A stretch of 64,000 bases of DNA, taken from a virus. Both the position numbers and the translations under genes were made by a program. Under the pieces are notes generated by a model. It was not told the origin of the DNA, ran no database searches, and was given only the letters and a program-made list of their open reading frames with translations. Positions 12,218-50,709 of the stretch are shown piece after piece. The DNA lies in IMG/VR virus record IMGVR_UViG_3300043570_001741, positions 93,714 to 157,713 of that record; one strand, 5' to 3'. Every line of letters starts with the position of its first letter. Positions within the stretch are counted from its first letter, which is position 1.

Positions 12218-12535
12218 ATGCTTAATCAGGAAACATTAGAACTGATTTTATTGGGTGGCATTGGTATTGTCATTCTTGGTTTTTTCTGGAGAATTATTGT
12301 TATTGGTGCTGCATTGCTTTTTGCTATTGTAGTTCTTGCTAACCATACACCACCTACTGAAACCAGAACCGTTGCACCTTCTGTGGTTGTGCAACAAGAG
12401 GTTGTAATAGAACCGCAAAAAGTGAACGACCCTCGCCGTGAGGAATACGTTCAAGGATGTGTAAGATATGGATTCACCAAGCAATCTTGTGAAGATTATT
12501 GGGATGGAAAAGTTGATAGTTTAATGGAGATTTAA
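12218..12535 (+). CDS. Membrane protein with C-terminal Cys pair
   Basis: Two N-terminal hydrophobic segments. Confidence 0.75.
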   Translation: MLNQETLELILLGGIGIVILGFFWRIIVIGAALLFAIVVLANHTPPTETRTVAPSVVVQQEVVIEPQKVNDPRREEYVQGCVRYGFTKQSCEDYWDGKVDSLMEI

Positions 12536-20456: not shown

Positions 20457-20480
20457 AACCCCGCTTCGGCGGGGTTTTTT
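20457..20480 (+). terminator. Intrinsic terminator with cUUCGg tetraloop, between convergent genes
   Basis: AACCCCGC-TTCG-GCGGGGTT followed by TTTT. Confidence 0.92.
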
Positions 20481-22380
20481 ATGCGACTCTACCAAACAAG
20501 GTAGTAAACACATCATCGAATGCTGATGGTATGTTTGGAGTGCCTTGAGTTCCTTGGCCACCGCCACCAGTTTTACTGTTGTTGGTGGTATTATTGTTTA
20601 TGATAGTTGTTCCCGCTTGACCAGCACTTGCTACTTGTACTGAAGAAGTTGTTAATGCACTACCTGTTGATGGTCTAGGTGGAACCTGAGATGCGGATGC
20701 TACCATTGTTGAACTTGGAGGTGCAACAGAAGGAGAATAACCAGCAAACATGGTAGATTCTTCAGTTCTTCTTTTAACTAAACCAGTATTTACAACATTT
20801 GAAGCTTTATTATATTCTAATATTTTTTGACCAATTTGTTCATTTGTTCTTGTTCCATTAGCTGTTAAAGAATTTAGAGAACCTGATCCTAAATTGTAAA
20901 CAAAAGAAGTTAGTGCATCCTTTTGGCCTTGATTCCAATCATATTTATTTTTCTTAGCAAAATTGTCAACAAAATCAACATCTTTTTTCAATCTTTCTCT
21001 TAAACGACTATCGGCTTCTTTCTCAGTGATAACTTCATTCTCACTATTAGCTTTTGTTCCATATCCTATAGACCATTGTTTATGATCCCAAATAGCCTTT
21101 GCTGTAAATCCTTCTTTTTTCTTCACATAGTTAACCAAATCTTCACTCAAACCATCTGATGGAACTGGAGTTGGACTAAGTTGTTCTGCTGTTGGCCCAC
21201 CTTGGCCACCACGACCAGCACCTGCTCCACCATCGGACGTTGGTGTGGGTGCAATCTTCATTCTTCTCATTTCAGCTGCATCAATACTTCCATCTGCTTG
21301 GCTTTTTAATGCATCGGCATGTTGTATATCTTGCTGTTCTTTAACGACACGAGATTCTTTAATTTCGATAGCTCTTTTACCTAATGCTTCAGCCTCAGCA
21401 ATTTTAGCACGCAATTCATCTTTAGTCCTTATTTCACCTGAGGTAAAGTCAGATAGCTCTTCATCGGTTCTATCATCTTTTAGATAGGATTTCAATTCAT
21501 CATTTATTAAAAAAGTTCTTCTTGCAACTTTTGATGATTGACTACCCCTGTCTTGAGCTATACGCAAATCAGTTTTTGCTTTTGTATTAGCTTCTGAATT
21601 TTTCTTATCAATTAAGTCCATTAACCATTTTGCAGCCAACAGGCCACCAACAAGGCCTAAAAATACTGGACTTGTTAGTAAAGGTAATAATGTACGAAAT
21701 ACGGTACTTATACCTTTAATAACATCTAAGCCAAGGCCAAATACTTTTACTAAATTATCTGGAGAAAATATTGATCCCAATGTTGCAGTAATTGCTGAAA
21801 CAATTGTTCCACCAAGTGTTAAAAGTGGTGCAAAAAGTGTTGATAAGAATCCTAAGATTCCAGTGTTCTTTTCTGGTTCTTTTGATGTTACTGGTGTTGG
21901 TGCCACACCTTTTTGTTTGCCAAATTGTGTCTCATAAGCAGATTCACGCTCACTAGATTTTCTGAAGTACATATCAGCTTTATTGGTTGCTTCTCCGCCT
22001 TGGAGTTTAACCAGTTTGACAATGTTCTGTCTCATCACATTCATGTCTCTAGCTATATCAGGTAGAGTCATTGAATTTTTTGCAGCCAGCTGTGTGTTTA
22101 AACTTACATTTCTTGTTTCATTTGTTAACCCATCTATCTTAGATTCCAATTGCATTGTTGAAATCTGAGGAGCCGGTGCAGATAAAGATGTTGGTGATTT
22201 ACCAGTTGTTCGAGTTGCAGAATATGTTTTGAACAGAGATGGCGCAATGGCAGCTGCCAATCCTTTTTGATTGAACATTCGTCTTGGGTCAATTTTCTCT
22301 AAGGCTCTTTTACCCAAAGCTGATGCTATTCCACCACCTTTTGCTTTTTCTGATTTATAAATTTCTGCTAATCTTGACAT
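20479..22380 (-). CDS. Tape-measure / baseplate hub-like protein (gp29 position) with GH24 lysozyme domain
   Basis: Helical N-terminus, central hydrophobic segments, EGF..KAIWD..QWSIGYGT, DAL.SFVYNLG and GLVKRR.EE motifs. Confidence 0.75.
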   Translation of the reverse strand: MSRLAEIYKSEKAKGGGIASALGKRALEKIDPRRMFNQKGLAAAIAPSLFKTYSATRTTGKSPTSLSAPAPQISTMQLESKIDGLTNETRNVSLNTQLAAKNSMTLPDIARDMNVMRQNIVKLVKLQGGEATNKADMYFRKSSERESAYETQFGKQKGVAPTPVTSKEPEKNTGILGFLSTLFAPLLTLGGTIVSAITATLGSIFSPDNLVKVFGLGLDVIKGISTVFRTLLPLLTSPVFLGLVGGLLAAKWLMDLIDKKNSEANTKAKTDLRIAQDRGSQSSKVARRTFLINDELKSYLKDDRTDEELSDFTSGEIRTKDELRAKIAEAEALGKRAIEIKESRVVKEQQDIQHADALKSQADGSIDAAEMRRMKIAPTPTSDGGAGAGRGGQGGPTAEQLSPTPVPSDGLSEDLVNYVKKKEGFTAKAIWDHKQWSIGYGTKANSENEVITEKEADSRLRERLKKDVDFVDNFAKKNKYDWNQGQKDALTSFVYNLGSGSLNSLTANGTRTNEQIGQKILEYNKASNVVNTGLVKRRTEESTMFAGYSPSVAPPSSTMVASASQVPPRPSTGSALTTSSVQVASAGQAGTTIINNNTTNNSKTGGGGQGTQGTPNIPSAFDDVFTTLFGRVA

Positions 22381-22512
22381 TTATTTTGCCTTTTGTTGTT
22401 TCAATCTCTCTTTTTCTTCTTCTAAAAACTTCACTAACATATCAATATATACTTGTCGTTCCCAAGGTAACATATTATCCAATTCTGTCAAACTATATTT
22501 GTGGTGTTGCAT
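22381..22512 (-). CDS. gp51: gp51-like baseplate hub assembly segment, probably reached by -1 frameshift from gp26
   Basis: MQHHKYSLTELDNMLPWERQVYIDML...; the frame stays open upstream (YDNLGNYYQTNFAL) to the gp26 slippery site. Not in the ORF track. Confidence 0.85.
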   Translation of the reverse strand: MQHHKYSLTELDNMLPWERQVYIDMLVKFLEEEKERLKQQKAK

Positions 22513-22562
22513 TAATGCAAAATTAGTTTGATAGTAATTACCTAGGTTATCATAATTAAAAT

Positions 22563-23300
22563 TTAGACGAAAAAATTTTGAATTCCTTCTACCTCGATTC
22601 TTTCCTCATATCCACACTTGGGACATTTAAAGTCCAAATCTTTTTTGATTTTTGGCATGGTTGAAAAGAAATTTTGAATCTTCTCTATATCATCTTGTTG
22701 TAAGTTTTCAATAAACTCCACAAGCTCTTCTTTTGGTGTATCTTTTGCATAATACATTTGATTCTCATCATAGATGTAATCAATACAATTCGCAATGATA
22801 TCGATTGTCTTTTCTATATTGTTTTCAACTGATTCATCATTGAATGATGTTTCAAAACTAGGATACTTCATAACAAGTCCTAGTTTTGGTGAAATAACAA
22901 TTTTAGTAGAATGTTCTTTATCAATTGTTGGTTCAATCTCCAACAATTTTAAATCAAACTTAACTAGACCACCACATGTCTTTTCTTCACCATCGTCTTT
23001 TTTGACAATGTTGTTGCAGTTGTATTTGAGGTTAACTACCTCACCCACAGACCTAGCACGAAGCTGCATGAATAAGTGTTCAAGGTCGAATGTTGGTAAT
23101 GTTTCAACATCCACATCTGATAAAATACAATTATTCAAAACTTGTTTGATAACACCAACTGTTTCTTTAACATCAGTTGATTCTGAAGCCATCATAAAAA
23201 GTTTTTGTTCTTTAACTAAGAACGGTCTAAATTTAACCGTTTTTCCCGTTGAAACCAATTTAGTTTCATATACAGGCACATCAATTTTTGGTAAAGCCAT
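22563..23300 (-). CDS. gp26: gp26 baseplate hub assembly protein
   Basis: MALPK...Y, FRPFLVKE.K, FDLE.LF.QLRARSVGE, FF.TMPK and EG...FF motifs. Confidence 0.92.
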   Translation of the reverse strand: MALPKIDVPVYETKLVSTGKTVKFRPFLVKEQKLFMMASESTDVKETVGVIKQVLNNCILSDVDVETLPTFDLEHLFMQLRARSVGEVVNLKYNCNNIVKKDDGEEKTCGGLVKFDLKLLEIEPTIDKEHSTKIVISPKLGLVMKYPSFETSFNDESVENNIEKTIDIIANCIDYIYDENQMYYAKDTPKEELVEFIENLQQDDIEKIQNFFSTMPKIKKDLDFKCPKCGYEERIEVEGIQNFFV

Positions 23301-23315
23301 ATTATATCCTCACAT

Positions 23316-24110
23316 TTAAAATATTAATCTACTAACTGGTGTAATCAGTCTTTCACTAATTGAGTTACCAGCTTTGTCGAAGAATCTGGATGCTTTGTCT
23401 CCAAATAGTTGAGCTGCCGCAGCAGCAATATCATATTGACCAGAATATACCACACGGTATTTTTGGTACGCAAATTGAACCGTCAATCGGTGAAATCCTT
23501 CTTCAGACCATGACAATGGCTGAGCAGCAATGGAAATTGGATAAGCATCAATCATTTCCACCGCATAAATTTGTTTGATAAAATCATCATACTGAATAAC
23601 CTTAATATTGGTCATATAACCAGTACCAGTGTTACCGCCTTTTGGAAAACGCAAGTTGTTGGTATCAGATGGCATAATTGCATCTAACCAGCGGTCAAAT
23701 AACTTGCGCTCATAGAATTCGTTTGTGCATACAAAATTTAATGCAAGCTGATTATATTGAGTTTGATATGGAACTTTAAATGTTGGTCCATAAATTTTAA
23801 CATCAGTTGTTATTAATTCTCTACCTGGCAATTCAGCACTTTCACATTGAAGTGCCAAATATCTGGACATAGATGCATTGCTAGTTTTAGATTGGCCGTC
23901 CGCAGATTCATTGCCTAAAATTTGATTAATAGCATCTGAAACATCTGTTACAATTGTTGTTGGTAGATTTAAAAGTTTTTCGAGTGCTGATGATTTAACG
24001 AAATCATTAACGTATTGTGGAATAGGAAGAATAACCTCGAAACGGTTGTTCTTTGCTAGGCCATCTTTAGCTTTGATATTGGACAGAAATGATTGTGGTG
24101 TAAAAGCCAT
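23316..24110 (-). CDS. Tail-tube family protein (gp54/gp19-like)
   Basis: GLA..NRFEV, C.S..LPG, F..W.D.I, AYP.SI....LSW and LTV.F.Y motifs. Confidence 0.8.
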   Translation of the reverse strand: MAFTPQSFLSNIKAKDGLAKNNRFEVILPIPQYVNDFVKSSALEKLLNLPTTIVTDVSDAINQILGNESADGQSKTSNASMSRYLALQCESAELPGRELITTDVKIYGPTFKVPYQTQYNQLALNFVCTNEFYERKLFDRWLDAIMPSDTNNLRFPKGGNTGTGYMTNIKVIQYDDFIKQIYAVEMIDAYPISIAAQPLSWSEEGFHRLTVQFAYQKYRVVYSGQYDIAAAAAQLFGDKASRFFDKAGNSISERLITPVSRLIF

Positions 24111-24688
24111 TAGAATTTTCCCTCTGAGTCGGCATAAACCTTACTTGTTGAAGCACCGACAAAACTTTCCATTGGTAATAATGCAGCTATATCCCACTCA
24201 TCAGCTGTAATTTCCAAAAATCTGGAACCAACATGTGAATATAGATAACGTTTGATACATGGTTGCGCCTCAAATATCTTAGAAGCCGATGCCAATACGG
24301 CATAACTTAAACGCAATTTGGTGCTCTTATCAAAGTTTTTATTGGTCGCAAAACTACTCAATTTATCCAACAAAATCATCCGTTGCTTTGGGTGAATGTA
24401 ATGTAAATTCAACCCTAAAAATCCGTCATTGTATTGTTCTATTGGTAGTACCAAAGGGAACCGGTCGTAGTATGGCAACGAAGCTTTCGTCTTGGGACTG
24501 TATGAATAGAAATACATTTTCCCAATTATGGTATTATCCTTTAGACGGGTTCTATCCTGTAGTAATGCTTGTCTTGTGGGATTCAATTCAGTTATTTTAG
24601 ATTGAAGCCACGAGCGTGCTTGGTTTGTTCTTGGTGTCAAACCTTGTTTCATCAACGATTGATTTATTCTGTCTAATAGATATGCCAT
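24110..24688 (-). CDS. gp2: gp2 DNA end protector
   Basis: GKMYFY.Y.PK.K..LPYYD.FPL, GLNLHY and CIKRYL..HV motifs. Confidence 0.93.
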   Translation of the reverse strand: MAYLLDRINQSLMKQGLTPRTNQARSWLQSKITELNPTRQALLQDRTRLKDNTIIGKMYFYSYSPKTKASLPYYDRFPLVLPIEQYNDGFLGLNLHYIHPKQRMILLDKLSSFATNKNFDKSTKLRLSYAVLASASKIFEAQPCIKRYLYSHVGSRFLEITADEWDIAALLPMESFVGASTSKVYADSEGKF

Positions 24689-24700: not shown

Positions 24701-25147
24701 TTAAAGTCCAAGTTCTTTTTCAGTCAATATTTGAAATTGCCATCCATGTTCCTTACAGAATAGGTCGGCTGCTCGCCACTTCTCTTGATTAATGGCGTAA
24801 GTTGCCGCCTCTTGAATGAATCGTTTTGTCTGCCGTTTCTGTACTGGCATCTTGGTTTGGGCGTTTGGTTTTACCTCAATCATTACAGTTTTTATCAGGC
24901 CAGTTTTCACTTTGAGTTTTGCAACAAAATCAGGGTAATACTTGTGCATTCTGTTGTCCACTGGAGACTTGTAAGGAATTGATAATTCTTCGGAAGCCCA
25001 CCAAATCACGTTTGGATTGTCATCAAAATATTTCATAACCCTGAGTTCCCACGAAGAACGATAAATGATGTTTGACGCATCTCCGTTATATTTTGCTGGG
25101 TTCTTTGGTTTGAATATTCCTTTGTATGTTTTATTTAAGGAAGTCAT
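24701..25147 (-). CDS. gp4: gp4 head completion nuclease
   Basis: YKG.F.PKNP.KY.GD...I.YRSSWE, YYPDF, EVKP and N..KW.AA motifs. Confidence 0.93.
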   Translation of the reverse strand: MTSLNKTYKGIFKPKNPAKYNGDASNIIYRSSWELRVMKYFDDNPNVIWWASEELSIPYKSPVDNRMHKYYPDFVAKLKVKTGLIKTVMIEVKPNAQTKMPVQKRQTKRFIQEAATYAINQEKWRAADLFCKEHGWQFQILTEKELGL

Positions 25148-27007: not shown

Positions 27008-28338
27008 ACGAAAACCAATTGCTACAACCTACAGATTTTGATATTCAGAGATTGGATCTGGTAACAAAATTTGGTTCGGTTGATTTACGTGGCATGTTTG
27101 AAGAAATCAACCTGTATGATAGTATGTTGGCACCATGTGCAACCGGCAATATGTTGATTGTCGATGCTATTGGTTTATCACAAAAATTACTATTAGATGG
27201 AACAGAATATTTGTTGGTGGAAATTGACAAGGGTGATGGCCTTTTTCCAATAAAAAGAAAGTATCGTGTTCATAGCCAAACTGATAGAAAGACTATGAAT
27301 CAAACCAGTGAGAGCTATATTTTAAAGTTTTCTTCGGAAGAATTAATTTTCTCTGAGCAACAAAGAGTCAGTCATTATTATGAAGGCACATATACTGAAA
27401 TTATTTTGGCTATCATTAGGGATTATTTAAAACCTGATAATGTAACATTAACTGGTGTTTATGACGCTTCAAATGGTTTGAATAAGGTAGTCATACCAAA
27501 CTTAAAACCATTTGATGCTATTCAATGGTGTGTCAAAAGAGCTTTAAATAATAATTCTAAACCGAATTTCATGTTCTTTCAAAACAATGATGGTTACAAT
27601 TTAAGCACATTAGATACAATTATGTCTAGTGAACCACTTTTAAATTTGACGTTCTCTGTTAAAAACTTGCCCGATGGAACATTAAATGAAGAAATGATTG
27701 GCGTTAGACACATGCAAGTAATGACACAATCAGACTTCATAAAAAATACTAGAGCTGGTGTATATTCTGGTAGTGTTGTTGGTTTTGATCCAGTAACTAG
27801 AACGTTGAAAAAAACAAATTACACCTTCAATGATATATACGAAGGTTCGGCTCATGCTAATCCAAATAGAATTGTAGCAAAATCTCAAACGAAGTATGGT
27901 AATAGTAACTATGATATGAATAACTCCAGAAAAATATTTTATTTGGATACAACTGAGCGACAAACTACTGCATACATTAATGAAAATGATCCAGAGCCTT
28001 TGCAGAATCAAGACACTCCTCAACAATACATTTTTCAACGAGAATCAATTCTGCAAAATTTTGTGAGTCAACGATTAAGACTGGTTATTCCTGGTAACTT
28101 TGCGGTAACATCTGGAAAAACATTGTATCTAAATGTACCACGTAGAGGTTTTGATTCAGATGATACAGATAATTTTGATATTACGTTAAAGGGCAAATAC
28201 GCTATTTTGGCTACAAGACATATGATACGACATAATAGGTTTGAAACCATTGTGGAAGCGGTAACAGATTCAACCGAAAGACCTGAATTTACTGCAAATC
28301 AGCAGGAGATGGATAAACAAATGGAATCGTTTAAGTAA
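27004..28338 (+). CDS. gp27-like baseplate hub protein
   Basis: Size and position between gp53 and gp5; IPN.KPF.AI.W, PGN.....G and G.Y.I...RH motifs. Confidence 0.7.
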   Translation: MNENQLLQPTDFDIQRLDLVTKFGSVDLRGMFEEINLYDSMLAPCATGNMLIVDAIGLSQKLLLDGTEYLLVEIDKGDGLFPIKRKYRVHSQTDRKTMNQTSESYILKFSSEELIFSEQQRVSHYYEGTYTEIILAIIRDYLKPDNVTLTGVYDASNGLNKVVIPNLKPFDAIQWCVKRALNNNSKPNFMFFQNNDGYNLSTLDTIMSSEPLLNLTFSVKNLPDGTLNEEMIGVRHMQVMTQSDFIKNTRAGVYSGSVVGFDPVTRTLKKTNYTFNDIYEGSAHANPNRIVAKSQTKYGNSNYDMNNSRKIFYLDTTERQTTAYINENDPEPLQNQDTPQQYIFQRESILQNFVSQRLRLVIPGNFAVTSGKTLYLNVPRRGFDSDDTDNFDITLKGKYAILATRHMIRHNRFETIVEAVTDSTERPEFTANQQEMDKQMESFK

Positions 28339-29456
28339 TGAAGACAGAATATAAACAACACCAAGGTATGTACCATGGTATCATTGAAGATATTGATGAC
28401 CCATTAAAACTGCATCGTTTGAGGGTTAGAGTTATTGAAATACACGATGATGATAAACAAAGAATTCCAACTACAACGTTGCCGTGGTTTCAGCCATTAT
28501 TTGCAGTAAACAATTCTGATAAAGCTTCTGCACCTAAACTTGGTGATTGGGTTTTGGTGTATTTTCCTGATCCTGATTCTGCACAATTTGGTTATGTGAT
28601 GGGTGTAATTCCTGGTATTGTATCTGAAGAAGAAGTGCCAGAACTTGTGGTAACAGCAAAAAGACCAGTTAAACCGGCCGGTGATCCAGCGGGAAATGTA
28701 GGTTATCCCTCAACTGCACCAACAGGTAGAAGTGTTGTCACGGGCACTGGTGTTGATAGAACAAACAACAAACTTATTCACGTTTGTGATATTACAATTG
28801 AAACGGACCGAGTTGTTGGTGCTGTAACAAGACAATTTAGTGAAGTTGTTGCTGCAATTAAAGCTGCAATAGCTGCTTTACTGAAGACTCTTGGAGCTAC
28901 AGATAGGTCTGGCGAAGTTTTGAAACTTACTGAAATTGCTAAAAATATTGCAAGAGAAATAAAAAAAGTTACTGATTTTATTAAAGACATTAATCAAACA
29001 ATTGCCGGTTATTTAAAAATTGTTGCAAAGATTAGAGCAATGATTGCATACATCTTAAACTTGCCTGCAAAATTATTAGCAGAATTTCAACAATGTTTGG
29101 CTAACTTATATAAATCATTACTTGCTGGTTTTACAACAGGTTTTGCTGATATTGGTTTAGTTTCTGATTTAAAAGAATTGGCCACTGCTGTTAATGAAGT
29201 TGGTACTGAAATTGCGGAAGTTGCTAAACAAGGTGCTATTTTGGCCAGTACACCACAACAATTAGGTGCAGTTCTTGTGGCACCATCAAGTGCGGCCGAC
29301 ATTAAAGCATCTGAAACCGCATTTACAAATTACATGGCATCACCTACAGCATATAGTTCATTGGTGCCATCTACATCGTCTTTGACAGCATCAACAGAAG
29401 CAACAGCTATTTCTAATGCTAATATCACAGACCCAACTAATGCGAAACTGGCTTAA
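28338..29456 (+). CDS. gp5: gp5 N-terminal OB-fold protein with helical extension
   Basis: GIIEDIDDPLKL.R.RVR...H, LPW and P..GDWV...F.D...AQ...VMG motifs. Confidence 0.8.
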   Translation: MKTEYKQHQGMYHGIIEDIDDPLKLHRLRVRVIEIHDDDKQRIPTTTLPWFQPLFAVNNSDKASAPKLGDWVLVYFPDPDSAQFGYVMGVIPGIVSEEEVPELVVTAKRPVKPAGDPAGNVGYPSTAPTGRSVVTGTGVDRTNNKLIHVCDITIETDRVVGAVTRQFSEVVAAIKAAIAALLKTLGATDRSGEVLKLTEIAKNIAREIKKVTDFIKDINQTIAGYLKIVAKIRAMIAYILNLPAKLLAEFQQCLANLYKSLLAGFTTGFADIGLVSDLKELATAVNEVGTEIAEVAKQGAILASTPQQLGAVLVAPSSAADIKASETAFTNYMASPTAYSSLVPSTSSLTASTEATAISNANITDPTNAKLA

Positions 29457-45601: not shown

Positions 45602-47605
45602 ATGTCATTAACTCCTAAATTATTGCAGCAAGGCGCAGCTGGTTCTGCTAGACCGGTTTATATTGAAGATGTGTTTAGTGCATTCCTTTATACAGGCAAT
45701 GGCACCACAAAAAATATTACCAATGGTATTGATTTGTCTACTAAGGGTGGATTGGTTTGGACAAAAAGCAGAAGTAATGCCCAAAACAACTATCTTGCCG
45801 ATACCGTCGCTTCCCAGTATTTGATTTCCAACACAACGTCTGGAAGTCAGGGTAGTGCTTTTCAAGGCTCAAATGACATTACCTCTGCCACAACAACTGG
45901 GTACACTCTTGGACCAAATTCAAGTACCGTAGTTAATAGTTCAGGGCAAACTCAGGTTTCATGGACATTCCGAAAGCAACGAAAGTTCTTTGATATTGTG
46001 ACTTATACGGGGAATGGCGCAACTTATCAGGATGTAACACATTCGCTTGGAAGCACTCCCGGTTGCATCATGGTTAAGTGCACGTCCACTGGTTCAACAA
46101 ATTGGATGGTGGTACATAGAAGCTTAGCAGTTGTAAATCAAAACCTGATTCTTAACTCAACTGCTAGTGCCTCAACTGTTAATTCTGAAACAATCACTTG
46201 GGGTTCAGTGGATGGGTCGTATAACGGATTTTTTAGGGTGTTAAATAGCCTTGGAAGTTCTGACCCAAACAACTATCTAAACGTTAACGGCAACACTTAT
46301 GTCGCCTACCTATTCGCCCACAACGCAGGAGGCTTTGGCCCGTCCGCTTCAGACAATGTGATTACGTGTGGGTCGTTTACAACAGACGGAAGCGGTAACT
46401 TTTCTGTGAACCTTGGTTATGAACCGCAATGGGTTCTTGCAAAAGCAACCAATGAGGCGGGTAGTGATTGGTATGTGTGGGACACCATGCGTGGATGGCC
46501 TGCTCGTAATAGTACAAGTGTCAATTATGTTAACAGTCGTTATTTGTCACCAAACACCAGCACGGCCGAAGCGGACTTTGGCGGCCCATACGTCACAAAC
46601 ACAGGGTTTGGTGGAGTATTGGTATCCAGTATCACCTACATCTACATAGCCATCCGCCGTGGCCCGATGAAAGTGCCTACGACTGGTACAAGTGTTTTTG
46701 TGGCAGAAACTTATAATGGAACCAACACGCTAAATAGAGAATTTGATGTATCTCCTTTACAGTATTCTGATTTATCTTGGTTTATTAGTAGAAACTACCC
46801 AACTGCACCAGTCAGTATAAGTTTTGTAGATAGATTGCGTGGATCACTTGCAAAGCTATGGACGGGAGGCACTAGCAATGAAAGCACTTCACAAGCATCT
46901 GTTAGTTTTTCAAATAAAATGGAAGCCATAGTAATTGGAACTACTGGCAATTTTTCAGGCTTAAATGAGACTGGTACTTCTTTTGTTATGTACAACTTAA
47001 AACGTGCTCCCGGCTTCTTTGATGAGGTTTGCTATACTGGAAATTACGCAGGGAACCCTCAAATCCCACATAATTTAACCGTAGCGCCAGAACTAATTAT
47101 TGCAAAAGTTAGAAGCACTACAGGCGCATGGTATATCAACAGTCCTTTAATTGGGACTAACTTTCAACTTGCTTTTAACGCAAGTGCAAAAAGTGCCGGA
47201 AGCACTTACACGCTTACATCAACGTATTTTCAAAATCCAGATATTAACTATCCTACGGGGGAGACATTTGTAGCCTACCTTTTTGCCACTTGCGCTGGTG
47301 TTTCCAAAGTTGGTTCATATACAGGTAATGGTTCATCACAAACTATCGATTGTGGCTTTGCTTCTGGTGCTAGGTTTGTTTTAATTAAACGTACAGACTC
47401 ATCAGGCGATTGGTATACATTTGATACTGCTCGAGGTATTGTTTCTGGAAACGATCCATTCTTAAAATTAAACACTACAGATGCTGAAGCAACAGCTTAT
47501 GATGCTGTTGATCCAGCTAACTCAGGTTTCATTGTCAACAACGATGCTACTAATTTCCCAATTAATGTAGCATCCGCCACATACATCTTTTTAGCAATCG
47601 CATAA
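45602..47605 (+). CDS. YTGNG-repeat tail/receptor-binding protein, paralog A
   Basis: Repeated YTGNG...H.LG..P..I..K......W modules; ends YIFLAIA. Confidence 0.75.
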   Translation: MSLTPKLLQQGAAGSARPVYIEDVFSAFLYTGNGTTKNITNGIDLSTKGGLVWTKSRSNAQNNYLADTVASQYLISNTTSGSQGSAFQGSNDITSATTTGYTLGPNSSTVVNSSGQTQVSWTFRKQRKFFDIVTYTGNGATYQDVTHSLGSTPGCIMVKCTSTGSTNWMVVHRSLAVVNQNLILNSTASASTVNSETITWGSVDGSYNGFFRVLNSLGSSDPNNYLNVNGNTYVAYLFAHNAGGFGPSASDNVITCGSFTTDGSGNFSVNLGYEPQWVLAKATNEAGSDWYVWDTMRGWPARNSTSVNYVNSRYLSPNTSTAEADFGGPYVTNTGFGGVLVSSITYIYIAIRRGPMKVPTTGTSVFVAETYNGTNTLNREFDVSPLQYSDLSWFISRNYPTAPVSISFVDRLRGSLAKLWTGGTSNESTSQASVSFSNKMEAIVIGTTGNFSGLNETGTSFVMYNLKRAPGFFDEVCYTGNYAGNPQIPHNLTVAPELIIAKVRSTTGAWYINSPLIGTNFQLAFNASAKSAGSTYTLTSTYFQNPDINYPTGETFVAYLFATCAGVSKVGSYTGNGSSQTIDCGFASGARFVLIKRTDSSGDWYTFDTARGIVSGNDPFLKLNTTDAEATAYDAVDPANSGFIVNNDATNFPINVASATYIFLAIA

Positions 47606-47657: not shown

Positions 47658-48164
47658 ATGTCAGACTATAGAATCAGAGAAACAGGCCAAGTTTTAAGTC
47701 AAGGCGAAGTAAGACGCCTACATTGGAACACATCTTTCCCAGCAGTATGGGATGCATCTGTTTGTGAGTTTATTGGAATTGATCCAGTTCTACAAGCACC
47801 ACAACCAACTAATACAGACCCATTGAAAACAATCCGTTTGAATGGAGTTGTGCAGGATAGCCTAGGCAATTGGGTACAAAACTGGGAAGTAGTAGACCTA
47901 TTCGCAGATACCACAGTAGAAGGTGTAACAACAACTAAGGTTCAGCATGAAGAAGCATTCATGGCCAGACGTAATACTGAGAGATGGACACAAGTCCGTT
48001 CACAGAGAGATTCTTTGTTGAAAGATACAGATTGGTTATCCATCCGTGCCGCAGATACAGTTACTCCAATGCCAACAGAGTGGTCTACATATCGCCAAGC
48101 ATTAAGAGATGTTACAGAACAATCTGACCCATTCAATATTGTGTGGCCAACTAAACCAGAATAA
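47658..48164 (+). CDS. Tail fibre assembly chaperone
   Basis: W..VR..RD.LL..TDW...W..YRQALRD...Q..P..I.WP.KP motif. Confidence 0.88.
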   Translation: MSDYRIRETGQVLSQGEVRRLHWNTSFPAVWDASVCEFIGIDPVLQAPQPTNTDPLKTIRLNGVVQDSLGNWVQNWEVVDLFADTTVEGVTTTKVQHEEAFMARRNTERWTQVRSQRDSLLKDTDWLSIRAADTVTPMPTEWSTYRQALRDVTEQSDPFNIVWPTKPE

Positions 48165-48175
48165 GAGAATAAAAA

Positions 48176-48724
48176 ATGGCTTTAACTAGAGTTAGTGGTA
48201 ATTTAATTTCAAGTGGTACCTTAACTGCCACTCAATTAGCGGTAACTGGTGTTTCTGCTGGTAGTTATGGTGGTACTACTTCTATTCCTACAATTACTGT
48301 TGGAACTGATGGTCGTGTGAGTTATGCTTCAAACATAGCTTTAAGTCTGAACAGTATTACAGGTAATGTGAATATTAGCGGCAACGTTAAAGCACAGACA
48401 TATCAAGAAACATTCTCTAACGTTTCTATTGCATCTGGTAACATTACTTGCAACTTGGCTAGTGCAACAATTTTTAAAACTGTAGTGACCTCTGCGGCCA
48501 ATGTTATCTTTACTAGCCCACCACCTAGTCTGACAGGATTTAGTTTTTTAATTCAGTTGTCACAAACTGGAAGTTATGCACTTACATGGCCATCTAGTAT
48601 TCAATGGCCATCAAACACAGCACCAACACTATCCACAACTGCTGGTTATGTTGATACGATTGCTCTATACACTATTGATGGTGGAACAAACTACTACGCT
48701 ACTTCAGTTCTAGGACAATTTTAA
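48176..48724 (+). CDS. Tail fibre adaptor-like protein (paralog of the 44735 C-terminal half)
   Basis: TGVSAGSYGG...IP linker; WPS.I.WP...APTL...D..Y domain. Confidence 0.7.
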   Translation: MALTRVSGNLISSGTLTATQLAVTGVSAGSYGGTTSIPTITVGTDGRVSYASNIALSLNSITGNVNISGNVKAQTYQETFSNVSIASGNITCNLASATIFKTVVTSAANVIFTSPPPSLTGFSFLIQLSQTGSYALTWPSSIQWPSNTAPTLSTTAGYVDTIALYTIDGGTNYYATSVLGQF

Positions 48725-50709
48725 TGAGTAAAGCTGCTTATAATGTTTATGCGGCCGGTGGTGCAGCAACGCCAACATATATTGAAGATGTGTTCAGCAC
48801 TTACCTATACACGGGCAATGGCGCTACACAGACCATTGTCAACGGGATCGATTTGTCTGGTAAAGGTGGGTTGGTTTGGCTGAAAAGCCGAGCCGGCGCG
48901 GATCCGCATGAGTTAACAAACACCGTACAGGGCGTTTCAAACTCACTGCGAACTAACAGCACTAATGGTTCGTCTTCTACAGATTTGACTGGTTTTACTT
49001 CTTCCGGCTTTACTCTTGGATACGTCACTGGAAACACCAACTTATCTGGAGCAACTGAAGTTTCATGGACCTTCCGCAAGCAACCAAAGTTCTTTGATAT
49101 TGTGACATGGACGGGAAACGGTACTACACAGAACTTGTCACATAACCTTGGCTCTGTACCGGGTATGATAATTGTAAAAAGAAGTGGTAACACGGGAGAT
49201 TGGAATGTTTGGCATAGAAGTTTAACAGCAGGAAACTACATAAAACTTAATAGTACGGCCGCACAAACCACAGGTGGCGCAGCTAACTATTTTGGAAATA
49301 ACTCTACCACAGTTAATCCAACAAGCACAACATTTACGGTTGGCAACAACTCACAAGTCAACGCTGATAGTGGAGAAGCCGGAAACACATATGTTGCCTA
49401 CCTATTTGCCCATAACGCAGGTGGCTTCGGTCTGACTGGCTCAGACAATGTGATTACGTGTGGGTCTTATACGGGCGGCACTTTTAATGGGGTTACATAC
49501 GATGCAGTAACCACGACTTTGGGGTTTGAGCCTCAATGGCTGCTTATTAAAGAAGCTACAGGCACTAACGCTTGGTTTATATTTGACAATATGCGTGGGA
49601 TTGTCACTGGCGGCAATGATCCGCGATTGAGCCCAAACAGTAGTAATCAAGAATTTAGCTCCAATTGGGTTGATTTAACATCAACAGGCTTTACCGCAAC
49701 AGCATCAGACGGATCAAGCGGAATCAATAACGGCAGCAGCTACACCTACATCTACATCGCCATCCGCTGTGGCCCGATGAAAGTGCCTACGACTGGGACT
49801 AGTGTGTTCAAAACTATTAGTAGAACAGGTACAGGCTCAGCAACTACAGTTACTGGAGTTGGCTTTCCACCAGATTTGGTAATCGCAAGAGCTAAAGCTA
49901 CGGCTGGATTAAATACTACATGGATGGCAAGACTTAGAGGTAGTGCTCAACTATACTCAAATTTTACTTCTTCAGGAGCTAGTAGTTCAACACAACAGAT
50001 AACCTCGTATGACATGGATGGAATAAGTGTAGGAACTGACGTAGCTCAATCTGGATTTAATAGTTCTGGTGATCCGGTTGTAAATTGGTTTCTTCGCCGA
50101 GCTCCAGGTTTCTTTAGTATTCTCACTTTTGTTGGAGACGCAACAACAAATAGGTCAATTAATCATAATTTGGGTGTAACACCAGAATTAATTATTACTA
50201 AGTCAAGTAACCAAACGGGCAATTGGCATGTTGGTATTGGGTTGCTTGGATGGACTTATGGTTTATATTTGGATACAACAAATGCAAGTAGTGTTCAAAA
50301 CTGGTATTCTACACCATCATCAATAGCTTATTCCACTGGTTCATCTACTACTGCAAATAGAAATAGTTACGAATATATTGTTTATCTTTTCGCCTCTTGT
50401 CCTGGTGTTTCCAAAGTAGGCTCATACACAGGTAATGGTTCAACACAAACAATTGATTGTGGCTTTGCAGCTGGTGCTAGGTTTGTTCTTATTAAGAGAA
50501 CCGATGACGTTGCTGATTGGTATGTCTGGGACACTGTTCGAGGTATTATTTCTGGAAATGATCCTTATCTTCTGATTAACAGTACAGTTGCTGAAGTAAC
50601 CAATACAGATTACATTGACCCATACAGCGCAGGGTTTGAATTATCCTCCACCGCACCAGCCGCCATTAATGCAAATGGCGGTACTTACATCTTCCTTGCA
50701 ATTGCATGA
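48724..50709 (+). CDS. YTGNG-repeat tail/receptor-binding protein, paralog B
   Basis: Colinear with 45602-47605 (YIEDVFS, AYLFAHNAGGFG, GPMKVPTTGTSVF, YIFLAIA). Confidence 0.75.
   Translation: MSKAAYNVYAAGGAATPTYIEDVFSTYLYTGNGATQTIVNGIDLSGKGGLVWLKSRAGADPHELTNTVQGVSNSLRTNSTNGSSSTDLTGFTSSGFTLGYVTGNTNLSGATEVSWTFRKQPKFFDIVTWTGNGTTQNLSHNLGSVPGMIIVKRSGNTGDWNVWHRSLTAGNYIKLNSTAAQTTGGAANYFGNNSTTVNPTSTTFTVGNNSQVNADSGEAGNTYVAYLFAHNAGGFGLTGSDNVITCGSYTGGTFNGVTYDAVTTTLGFEPQWLLIKEATGTNAWFIFDNMRGIVTGGNDPRLSPNSSNQEFSSNWVDLTSTGFTATASDGSSGINNGSSYTYIYIAIRCGPMKVPTTGTSVFKTISRTGTGSATTVTGVGFPPDLVIARAKATAGLNTTWMARLRGSAQLYSNFTSSGASSSTQQITSYDMDGISVGTDVAQSGFNSSGDPVVNWFLRRAPGFFSILTFVGDATTNRSINHNLGVTPELIITKSSNQTGNWHVGIGLLGWTYGLYLDTTNASSVQNWYSTPSSIAYSTGSSTTANRNSYEYIVYLFASCPGVSKVGSYTGNGSTQTIDCGFAAGARFVLIKRTDDVADWYVWDTVRGIISGNDPYLLINSTVAEVTNTDYIDPYSAGFELSSTAPAAINANGGTYIFLAIA

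Follow-up and report, generated by a model that had tools for sequence, protein, structure and literature searches.

In the uncultured T4-like phage studied here, a short reading frame resembling gp51 overlaps the 3' end of gp26, which raises the question whether it is a gene of its own or the continuation of gp26 in another frame. Precedents for the latter are gpG and gpGT of lambda and the conserved -1 frameshift of tail chaperone genes (Levin, 1993; Xu, Hendrix and Duda, 2004; both as cited in PMC5009743). The citing article, a recoding review from 2016, regards G-T frameshifting as conserved in long-tailed phages 'except T4' (PMC5009743). For T4 itself, gp26 and gp51 were described as hub assembly chaperones, of which gp51 is required yet absent from the particle (Leiman et al., 2010; PMC3004832). 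The analysis described below suggests that gp26 and 'gp51' are probably a single gene with two products, which would arise by a -1 ribosomal slip on the heptamer T_TTT_TTC and form a chaperone pair of the G/GT type.

The DNA that was analysed (the window) corresponds to the final 64 kb of an IMG/VR virus record that is 157.7 kb long and, according to CheckV, 95% complete. Among cultured phages, T4-like cyanophages and one Pelagibacter myophage are closest to it at the DNA level.

Gene order around gp26

On the minus strand of the window, the genes for the head completion protein gp4 (24701-25147) and the DNA end protector gp2 (24110-24688) are followed by a tube-family gene (23316-24110), gp26 (22563-23300), the gp51-like extension (22381-22569) and a gene coding for a 633-aa protein (20479-22380). 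The tube-family gene lies directly upstream of gp26, and its 264-aa product, a tube initiator of the gp54/gp48 type, matched phrog_45 (tail tube, E 3.6e-34) and phrog_3629, with scores against the Pfam tube families that stayed under their cut-offs. gp26 codes for 245 aa in the 0 frame and ends with TAA at 22565-22563. Its product, the short chaperone form (TAC-N), matched PF12322 (T4_baseplate) with 212.5 bits (cut-off 24.5), residues 9-244 aligning to positions 2-218 of the 219 in the profile, as well as phrog_150 (E 8.7e-69). The extension (TAC-C) consists of 62 codons and a stop in the -1 frame, and its translation matched phrog_634 ('baseplate hub assembly catalyst', E 1.5e-26) and phrog_150. 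Right after the stop of the extension the 633-aa protein starts (TAA ATG), which has a lysozyme domain. In a preliminary description of this DNA, the order had been given as tube-family gene, gp26, gp51 and tape measure; profile matches bear out the order, but not the label 'tape measure' for the long gene.

A slippery heptamer at the 3' end of gp26

Read directly from the minus strand, gp26 ends with GGA ATT CAA AAT TTT TTC GTC TAA. The heptamer T_TTT_TTC (22575-22569) is in phase, with the pattern X_XXY_YYZ on the 0-frame codons AAT|TTT|TTC, and the gp26 stop follows one codon further on. The gp26 end and the slippery site had been described correctly to the base in the earlier work, which proposed two overlapping heptamers. 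T_TTT_TTC and A_AAT_TTT are indeed both in phase, but among the relatives considered below the A's are conserved to just 67-87% and the six T's to 100%.

From C22569, the -1 frame reads RLNFNYDNLGNYYQTNFALMQHHKYSL... and continues for 62 codons (22569-22384) to a TAA at 22383-22381. Its open stretch already begins 40 nt ahead of the gp26 stop, and the stop-free, gp51-like -1 frame claimed before is recovered, together with its phrog_634 match. The predicted transframe product gp26-gp51 (TAC-NC, 22384-23300), for which C22569 is read twice, would have 306 aa and the junction peptide ...GIQNFF/RLNFNYDNLGNYYQTNFALMQHHK or, with the R placed before the stroke, ...GIQNFFR / LNFNYDNLGNYYQTNFALMQHHK.

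In the mechanism that we propose, the majority of ribosomes would read gp26 to its stop and produce the 245-aa protein, consisting of an N-domain with chaperone fold and a CxxC domain. In a minority, both tRNAs would slip back one base on U_UUU_UUC (22575-22569), and these ribosomes would translate 62 further codons in the -1 frame to yield the 306-aa protein. The ratio of short to long form would be set by the slip frequency, and the pair would act like lambda gpG and gpGT as chaperones that stay out of the virion and help to assemble hub, tape measure and tube.

In the 65 long ORFs of the window (18,787 codons), x-Phe-Phe occurs 23 times. Of the Phe codons in these ORFs, 72% are TTT, yet the Phe-Phe dipeptides shun the T-run spelling, the first Phe being TTC at 15 of the 23 sites. 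This scarcity of T-runs agrees with slippery runs being selected against in this phage. The sole other in-phase NNT TTT TTC among the 65 ORFs is a GGT TTT TTC at codons 21-23 of a 105-aa ORF on the plus strand (12218-12535), where the heptamer sits early in the ORF.

Conservation of the heptamer among related loci

Related loci were retrieved from IMG/VR with gp26 (47 loci) and with the extension (80 loci) as query, and records of cultured phages were added. T_TTT_TTN was present in identical phase in 127 out of 127 related loci holding the junction, corresponding to about 117 distinct sequences, among which 102 are spelt TTTTTTC, 11 TTTTTTT and four TTTTTTA. A comparison of gp26 3' ends across T4-like relatives had been suggested as a check in the preliminary description; in all of these junction loci, both the heptamer and the -1 relation of the downstream frame were constant. 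Cultured phages with the heptamer are P-SSM2, P-HM2, the pelagiphage Mosig, Stenotrophomonas phage DLP6 and the KVP40-like phage PG216, as well as Nanhuvirus LPCS28, Chrysonvirus avDM12 and Paraglaciecola GD1. The junction of the GC-rich DLP6 reads GAG AAT TTT TTC GTC TAA.

For the analysis of single columns, 114 distinct sequences were aligned with the heptamer as anchor. Column entropy was 0 at all six T's, two of which are 0-frame wobble positions, compared with 1.5-1.9 at neighbouring wobble positions. The codon preceding TTT TTN varies (AAT, AGT, GAT, GCT or TCT, encoding Asn, Ser, Asp or Ala) and always ends in T, and in the TTTTTTA variants Phe-Phe is changed to Phe-Leu with the nucleotide pattern kept. 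TTC is used as second Phe codon in 89% of the sequences, though TTT represents 73% of the Phe codons in these genes. The 0-frame stop is located one codon past the heptamer in 106 of 115 sequences. Judged from these alignments, a heptamer in constant phase is far more than chance would produce.

Coding potential of the -1 frame

In the 36 nt upstream of the heptamer, the entropy by 0-frame codon position was 1.27, 0.66 and 1.61 for positions 1, 2 and 3, and from +13 onwards the entropy by -1 frame position was 0.65, 0.44 and 1.19. It is exactly at the heptamer that wobble variability passes from one frame to the other, indicating that coding in the -1 frame begins there. In the window, the first ATG of the -1 frame is codon 20 of the extension. 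The first 19 codons are free of ATG, GTG and TTG and yet under purifying selection in the -1 frame, in agreement with the earlier observation that gp51-like sequence begins ahead of the first ATG.

Among the relatives, an ATG before the conserved NF motif was found in just 19 of 113 sequences, accompanied by a Shine-Dalgarno (SD)-like site in one. The first ATG corresponds to extension codon 18-19 in 90 sequences and to codon 32 in nine, which would leave about 30 residues, and an ATG is located 1-3 codons after the slip site in P-SSM2, DLP6 and PG216. A conserved independent gp51 start with an SD sequence and a variable relative frame, named as counter-evidence in the preliminary description, were both looked for in the heptamer loci and were not found.

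Since the extension has no conserved start codon, annotators have chosen different starts for 'gp51', and the annotated proteins differ in length (30 aa in P-HM2, 44 in Mosig, 57 in P-SSM2). In Cronobacter phage LPCS28 (RefSeq; L136:2178-2375) and Aeromonas phage avDM12 (L137:2181-2390) the extension is unannotated and appears as 'intergenic'. None of the 13 phage records examined joins the gp26 and extension ORFs, and two omit the extension.

Elements flanking the slip site

An SD-like run, GAAGG (22585-22589, minus strand), is formed by Glu-Gly codons and ends 9 nt before the heptamer. An AGG was present 6-16 nt upstream of the heptamer in 104 of the 115 distinct sequences, with the GG conserved to 99%, and a GAAGG or GAGGG run at about 9 nt was likewise found in 104. 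The -1 frameshift of E. coli dnaX takes place on A_AAA_AAG, which is preceded by an SD-like element and followed by a hairpin, and HIV-1 gag-pol uses U_UUU_UUA. The site described here shares with dnaX the X_XXY_YYZ heptamer for tandem slippage and the SD-like run at about 9 nt, and by analogy GAAGG/GAGGG could be an upstream stimulator of the slip. However, in contrast to dnaX the run doubles as a conserved Glu-Gly pair, and because the same bases encode these residues, a stimulator role is not separable here. The U_UUU_UUA of gag-pol recurs as a variant in four relatives.

A further difference to dnaX concerns the downstream side. No conserved RNA structure was detected in the 45 nt after the heptamer of the relatives (median MFE -3.7 kcal/mol). 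For this phage itself, the downstream MFE was -1.7 kcal/mol, and the z of -0.73 obtained for 99 nt is weak. Downstream hairpins with z values of -2.1 to -4.8 were obtained for P-SSM2, DLP6, P-HM2 and Mosig. A downstream stimulatory hairpin as a general part of the signal was ruled out, as it is not conserved and is weak in the clade of this phage.

Comparison of the predicted fusion with T4-type gp51

Along the 282 positions of phrog_150, gp26 of the window covers 5-232 and the extension 234-278, T2 gp51 covers 13-280 and T2 gp26 covers 14-235. In BLASTP, the 306-aa fusion aligned to T2 gp51 (query 192-298 versus 157-249, E 5e-06) free of gaps over the junction, with ...EGIQNFF|RLNFNYDNL... 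of the fusion opposite ...TDIVDVF|KLLVNPDEI... of T2 gp51. These alignments support the view that the fusion would be the counterpart of full-length T4 gp51 and that the short form is collinear with T2 gp26. The TAC-N and TAC-NC of T4, gp26 (208 aa) and gp51 (249 aa), belong to the same family, both matching PF12322 and phrog_150. In T4, T2 and Karamvirus, however, the long form stems from a second, divergently transcribed full-length gene, whereas here one gene would give rise to both forms.

Full-length gp51 of T2 and Karamvirus has a gene of its own before 27-28-29, and gp26 ends there with GAG TTC TTT or GAA TTC TTC. As their gp26 is devoid of the heptamer and full-length gp51 is encoded elsewhere, they serve as a natural negative control. 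In a tree, Tevenvirinae gp26 and the N-domains of gp51 grouped together (support 83/82, long branches), which is compatible with a duplication in this lineage that replaced the frameshift, but is no proof of it.

A different layout was found in the Ackermannviridae (Shigella) phage Ag3 (L053:3283-3444) and in Vibrio phage D528 (L139:2148-2348). Both are without the heptamer, and the ATG with which the homologous -1 ORF opens shares bases with the stop codon of gp26 (TAATG), which suggests that the extension may act as a separate peptide, in trans, in some lineages. The same pair may be present in Ag3 and D528 in a form coupled through stop and start codons. The Ag3 record itself carries the remark 'no identifiable ribosome-binding site'.

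Three layouts can thus be set side by side: (a) one gene with U_UUU_UUN in cyanophages, pelagiphages, KVP40-like phages, Nanhuvirus, Chrysonvirus, DLP6 and GD1, (b) a coupled small ORF (TAATG) in Ackermannviridae phage Ag3 and Vibrio phage D528, and (c) a duplicated full-length gene in Tevenvirinae. The published work on these chaperones (see below) may extend no further than their identification; in that case, as we suggest only tentatively, this series, consisting of a slip gene with SD-like GAAGG and without RNA structure, a TAATG-coupled small ORF and a duplicated full-length gene, could be new. If the series is true, the extension works either fused or in trans.

Fold of gp26 and comparison with lambda gpG/gpGT

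An AlphaFold2 model of gp26 was calculated from an alignment of 77 sequences (pLDDT 90.7), and its structure was compared exhaustively with those of 48,161 chains. The top three matches were tail assembly chaperones, all aligning to gp26 residues 1-95: 3fgx (Z 7.4, 85 aligned residues, rmsd 4.1), YqbN (3klu, Z 7.2) and the HK97 chaperone (2ob9, Z 7.0); the next match had a Z of 4.7. Since these Z values are moderate, what counts for the fold assignment is that all three top matches are chaperones of this kind. A Foldseek search of the model against the PDB yielded nothing at E <= 0.001, 2ob9 being obtained with a probability of 0.54, and a profile search with the gp26 alignment against PDB sequences yielded nothing relevant. 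The model supports a tail-assembly-chaperone fold, of the spiral-forming type represented by HK97 2ob9 and YqbN 3klu, for the N-domain of gp26, and the remainder of the protein is a second domain carrying CxxC pairs.

A G/GT-like role of gp26 and gp51 is also supported by the T4 chaperone literature together with the gene order. As in lambda, ribosomes would slip by -1 a few codons ahead of the stop, yielding one product with and one without a C-terminal extension; a downstream structure would not be obligatory, the gene has a tube-family gene on one side and a long gene on the other, and, by analogy, the products would assist assembly without becoming part of the virion. HK97 extends this likeness through the match of its chaperone 2ob9 to the gp26 N-domain. 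On the other hand, no sequence similarity to gpG/gpGT is detectable, the site is U_UUU_UUC here and G_GGA_AAG in lambda, and gp26, roughly double gpG in size, carries the CxxC domain as an extra C-terminal part. In pairs of the G/GT type, the short part is expected to bind the tape measure and the extension the tube protein, with both products needed in a set ratio and neither present in the virion; for gp26 and gp51 such properties would follow by analogy. A complex prediction for the extension with the upstream tube-family protein gave a score of 0.00, which is evidence neither way.

Alternative explanations for the two-frame layout

The two frames might represent a single 306-aa ORF that was disrupted by a sequencing or assembly error or by a recent frameshift mutation, and a homopolymer run is a typical indel site in sequencing. 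However, the layout recurs in 127 independent loci that stem from numerous samples, and also in cultured phages for which various sequencing methods had been used; it is kept down to 27% protein identity, and an in-frame single ORF was not found among these loci. The comparative data refute this explanation, to which we assign a negligible probability. The same gp26-gp51 fusion could also be obtained by normal translation if RNA polymerase added one U on the T-run. Such transcriptional slippage, which we regard as unlikely, would agree with the conserved element being a T homopolymer, with the 7-8 T's present in 10 of the 115 sequences and with the missing conservation of a downstream RNA structure. 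Bacterial polymerase slippage, however, usually occurs at runs of 8-9 or more, for which the exactly six T's of 105 of the 115 sequences are short. Moreover, the run always starts at codon position 3, position 7 is a C in 89% although TTT is the preferred codon (73%), and TTT TTT after a non-T wobble, which would have equal run length, is never seen. Such a constraint on phase is predicted by tandem tRNA slippage and not by run length alone, which argues against transcriptional slippage; the run of exactly six T's in most sequences together with its invariable start at codon position 3 favours tandem slippage on the ribosome.

It is also conceivable that no fusion is made and that a separate small gp51 is produced by ribosomes that re-initiate behind the gp26 stop or that use an internal or non-canonical start codon. 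Databases annotate gp51 as its own gene, the ORF of Ag3 and Vibrio phage D528 begins at TAATG without a heptamer, and P-SSM2, DLP6 and PG216 offer an ATG 1-3 codons after the slip site. This explanation nevertheless appears quite improbable to us, as the first 19 codons of the window extension are without a start codon but under purifying selection in the -1 frame, early ATGs are confined to the 19 of 113 sequences with their single SD, and the codon-32 ATG of nine sequences leaves about 30 residues. In addition, a separate gp51 gives no account of the invariant heptamer, of the T-ending codon in front of it or of the absence of the heptamer from gp26 of T2 and Karamvirus. The synthesis of a 245-aa product and a fusion of about 306 aa by a -1 shift, as put forward in the preliminary description, is supported by the invariant heptamer, the switch in periodicity, the lack of a conserved start, the collinearity with T4-type gp51 and the fold, and one gene with a -1 ribosomal slip remains the reading that we consider probable. 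That the slip is ribosomal, how frequent it is and which partners are bound by both forms are points that we infer.

The gene downstream of the extension

In the 633-aa protein, PF00959 (lysozyme) was detected at residues 420-541, and the central part contains a hydrophobic stretch. By its position, the protein is a candidate for the tape measure. BLASTP revealed no similarity of the 633-aa protein to T2 gp29, residues 1-400 gave no match in PHROGs, TMP phrogs included, and PF25671 was absent from the whole 157.7-kb genome. When 52 diverse N-terminal homologues were analysed with Pfam, muralytic domains alone and no TMP family were obtained. Atlas neighbours of the 633-aa protein with TMP families had scores of just 0.77-0.84, which are below 0.9, and are leads only. 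In 74 distinct relatives, a long ORF begins -8 to +8 nt from the stop of the extension and not from that of gp26.

The N-terminus of the gene following the extension was very variable between lineages (loci L004-L134), and the muralytic domains found at the position of the 633-aa protein differed among relatives (Phage_lysozyme2, SLT, M23 and GH19). On the plus strand of the window, a gp5 homologue of 372 aa (28338-29456) matched the N-terminal part of T4 gp5 alone and is without a lysozyme domain.

Relation to published work and implications for annotation

The PRFect paper (PMC10885494), citing Vladimirov, Gautam and Davidson (Virology 2022;566:9-15), states that, in place of frameshifting, some T4-like phages possess two genes, one for a short chaperone and one for a longer fusion, which is understood there as the two-gene solution of T4. 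A 2025 paper (PMC12846349) cites the same study with regard to -1 frameshift signals of the poly-T type in the TAC-N genes of T4-like phages. From these citing passages, the chaperone pair of T4-like phages and the poly-T signal appear to have been published already by Vladimirov et al. (2022), and the novelty implied by the preliminary description does not hold as far as these passages reach.

A frameshift would explain why 'gp51' of cyanophages and many other T4-like phages resembles no more than the last fifth of the T4 protein and is without a start codon. It would also end the status of the T4 group as an exception to the frameshifting of tail chaperone genes ('except T4', PMC5009743). 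The practical value lies in annotation, as two ORFs are to be joined.

Elsewhere in the window, two paralogous proteins of about 660 aa are encoded on the plus strand (45602-47605 and 48724-50709), which matched the same virion-structural and tail-fibre PHROGs. A tail-fibre-assembly-like gene (47658-48164) follows the first paralogue, and the two paralogues look like a duplicated fibre module.
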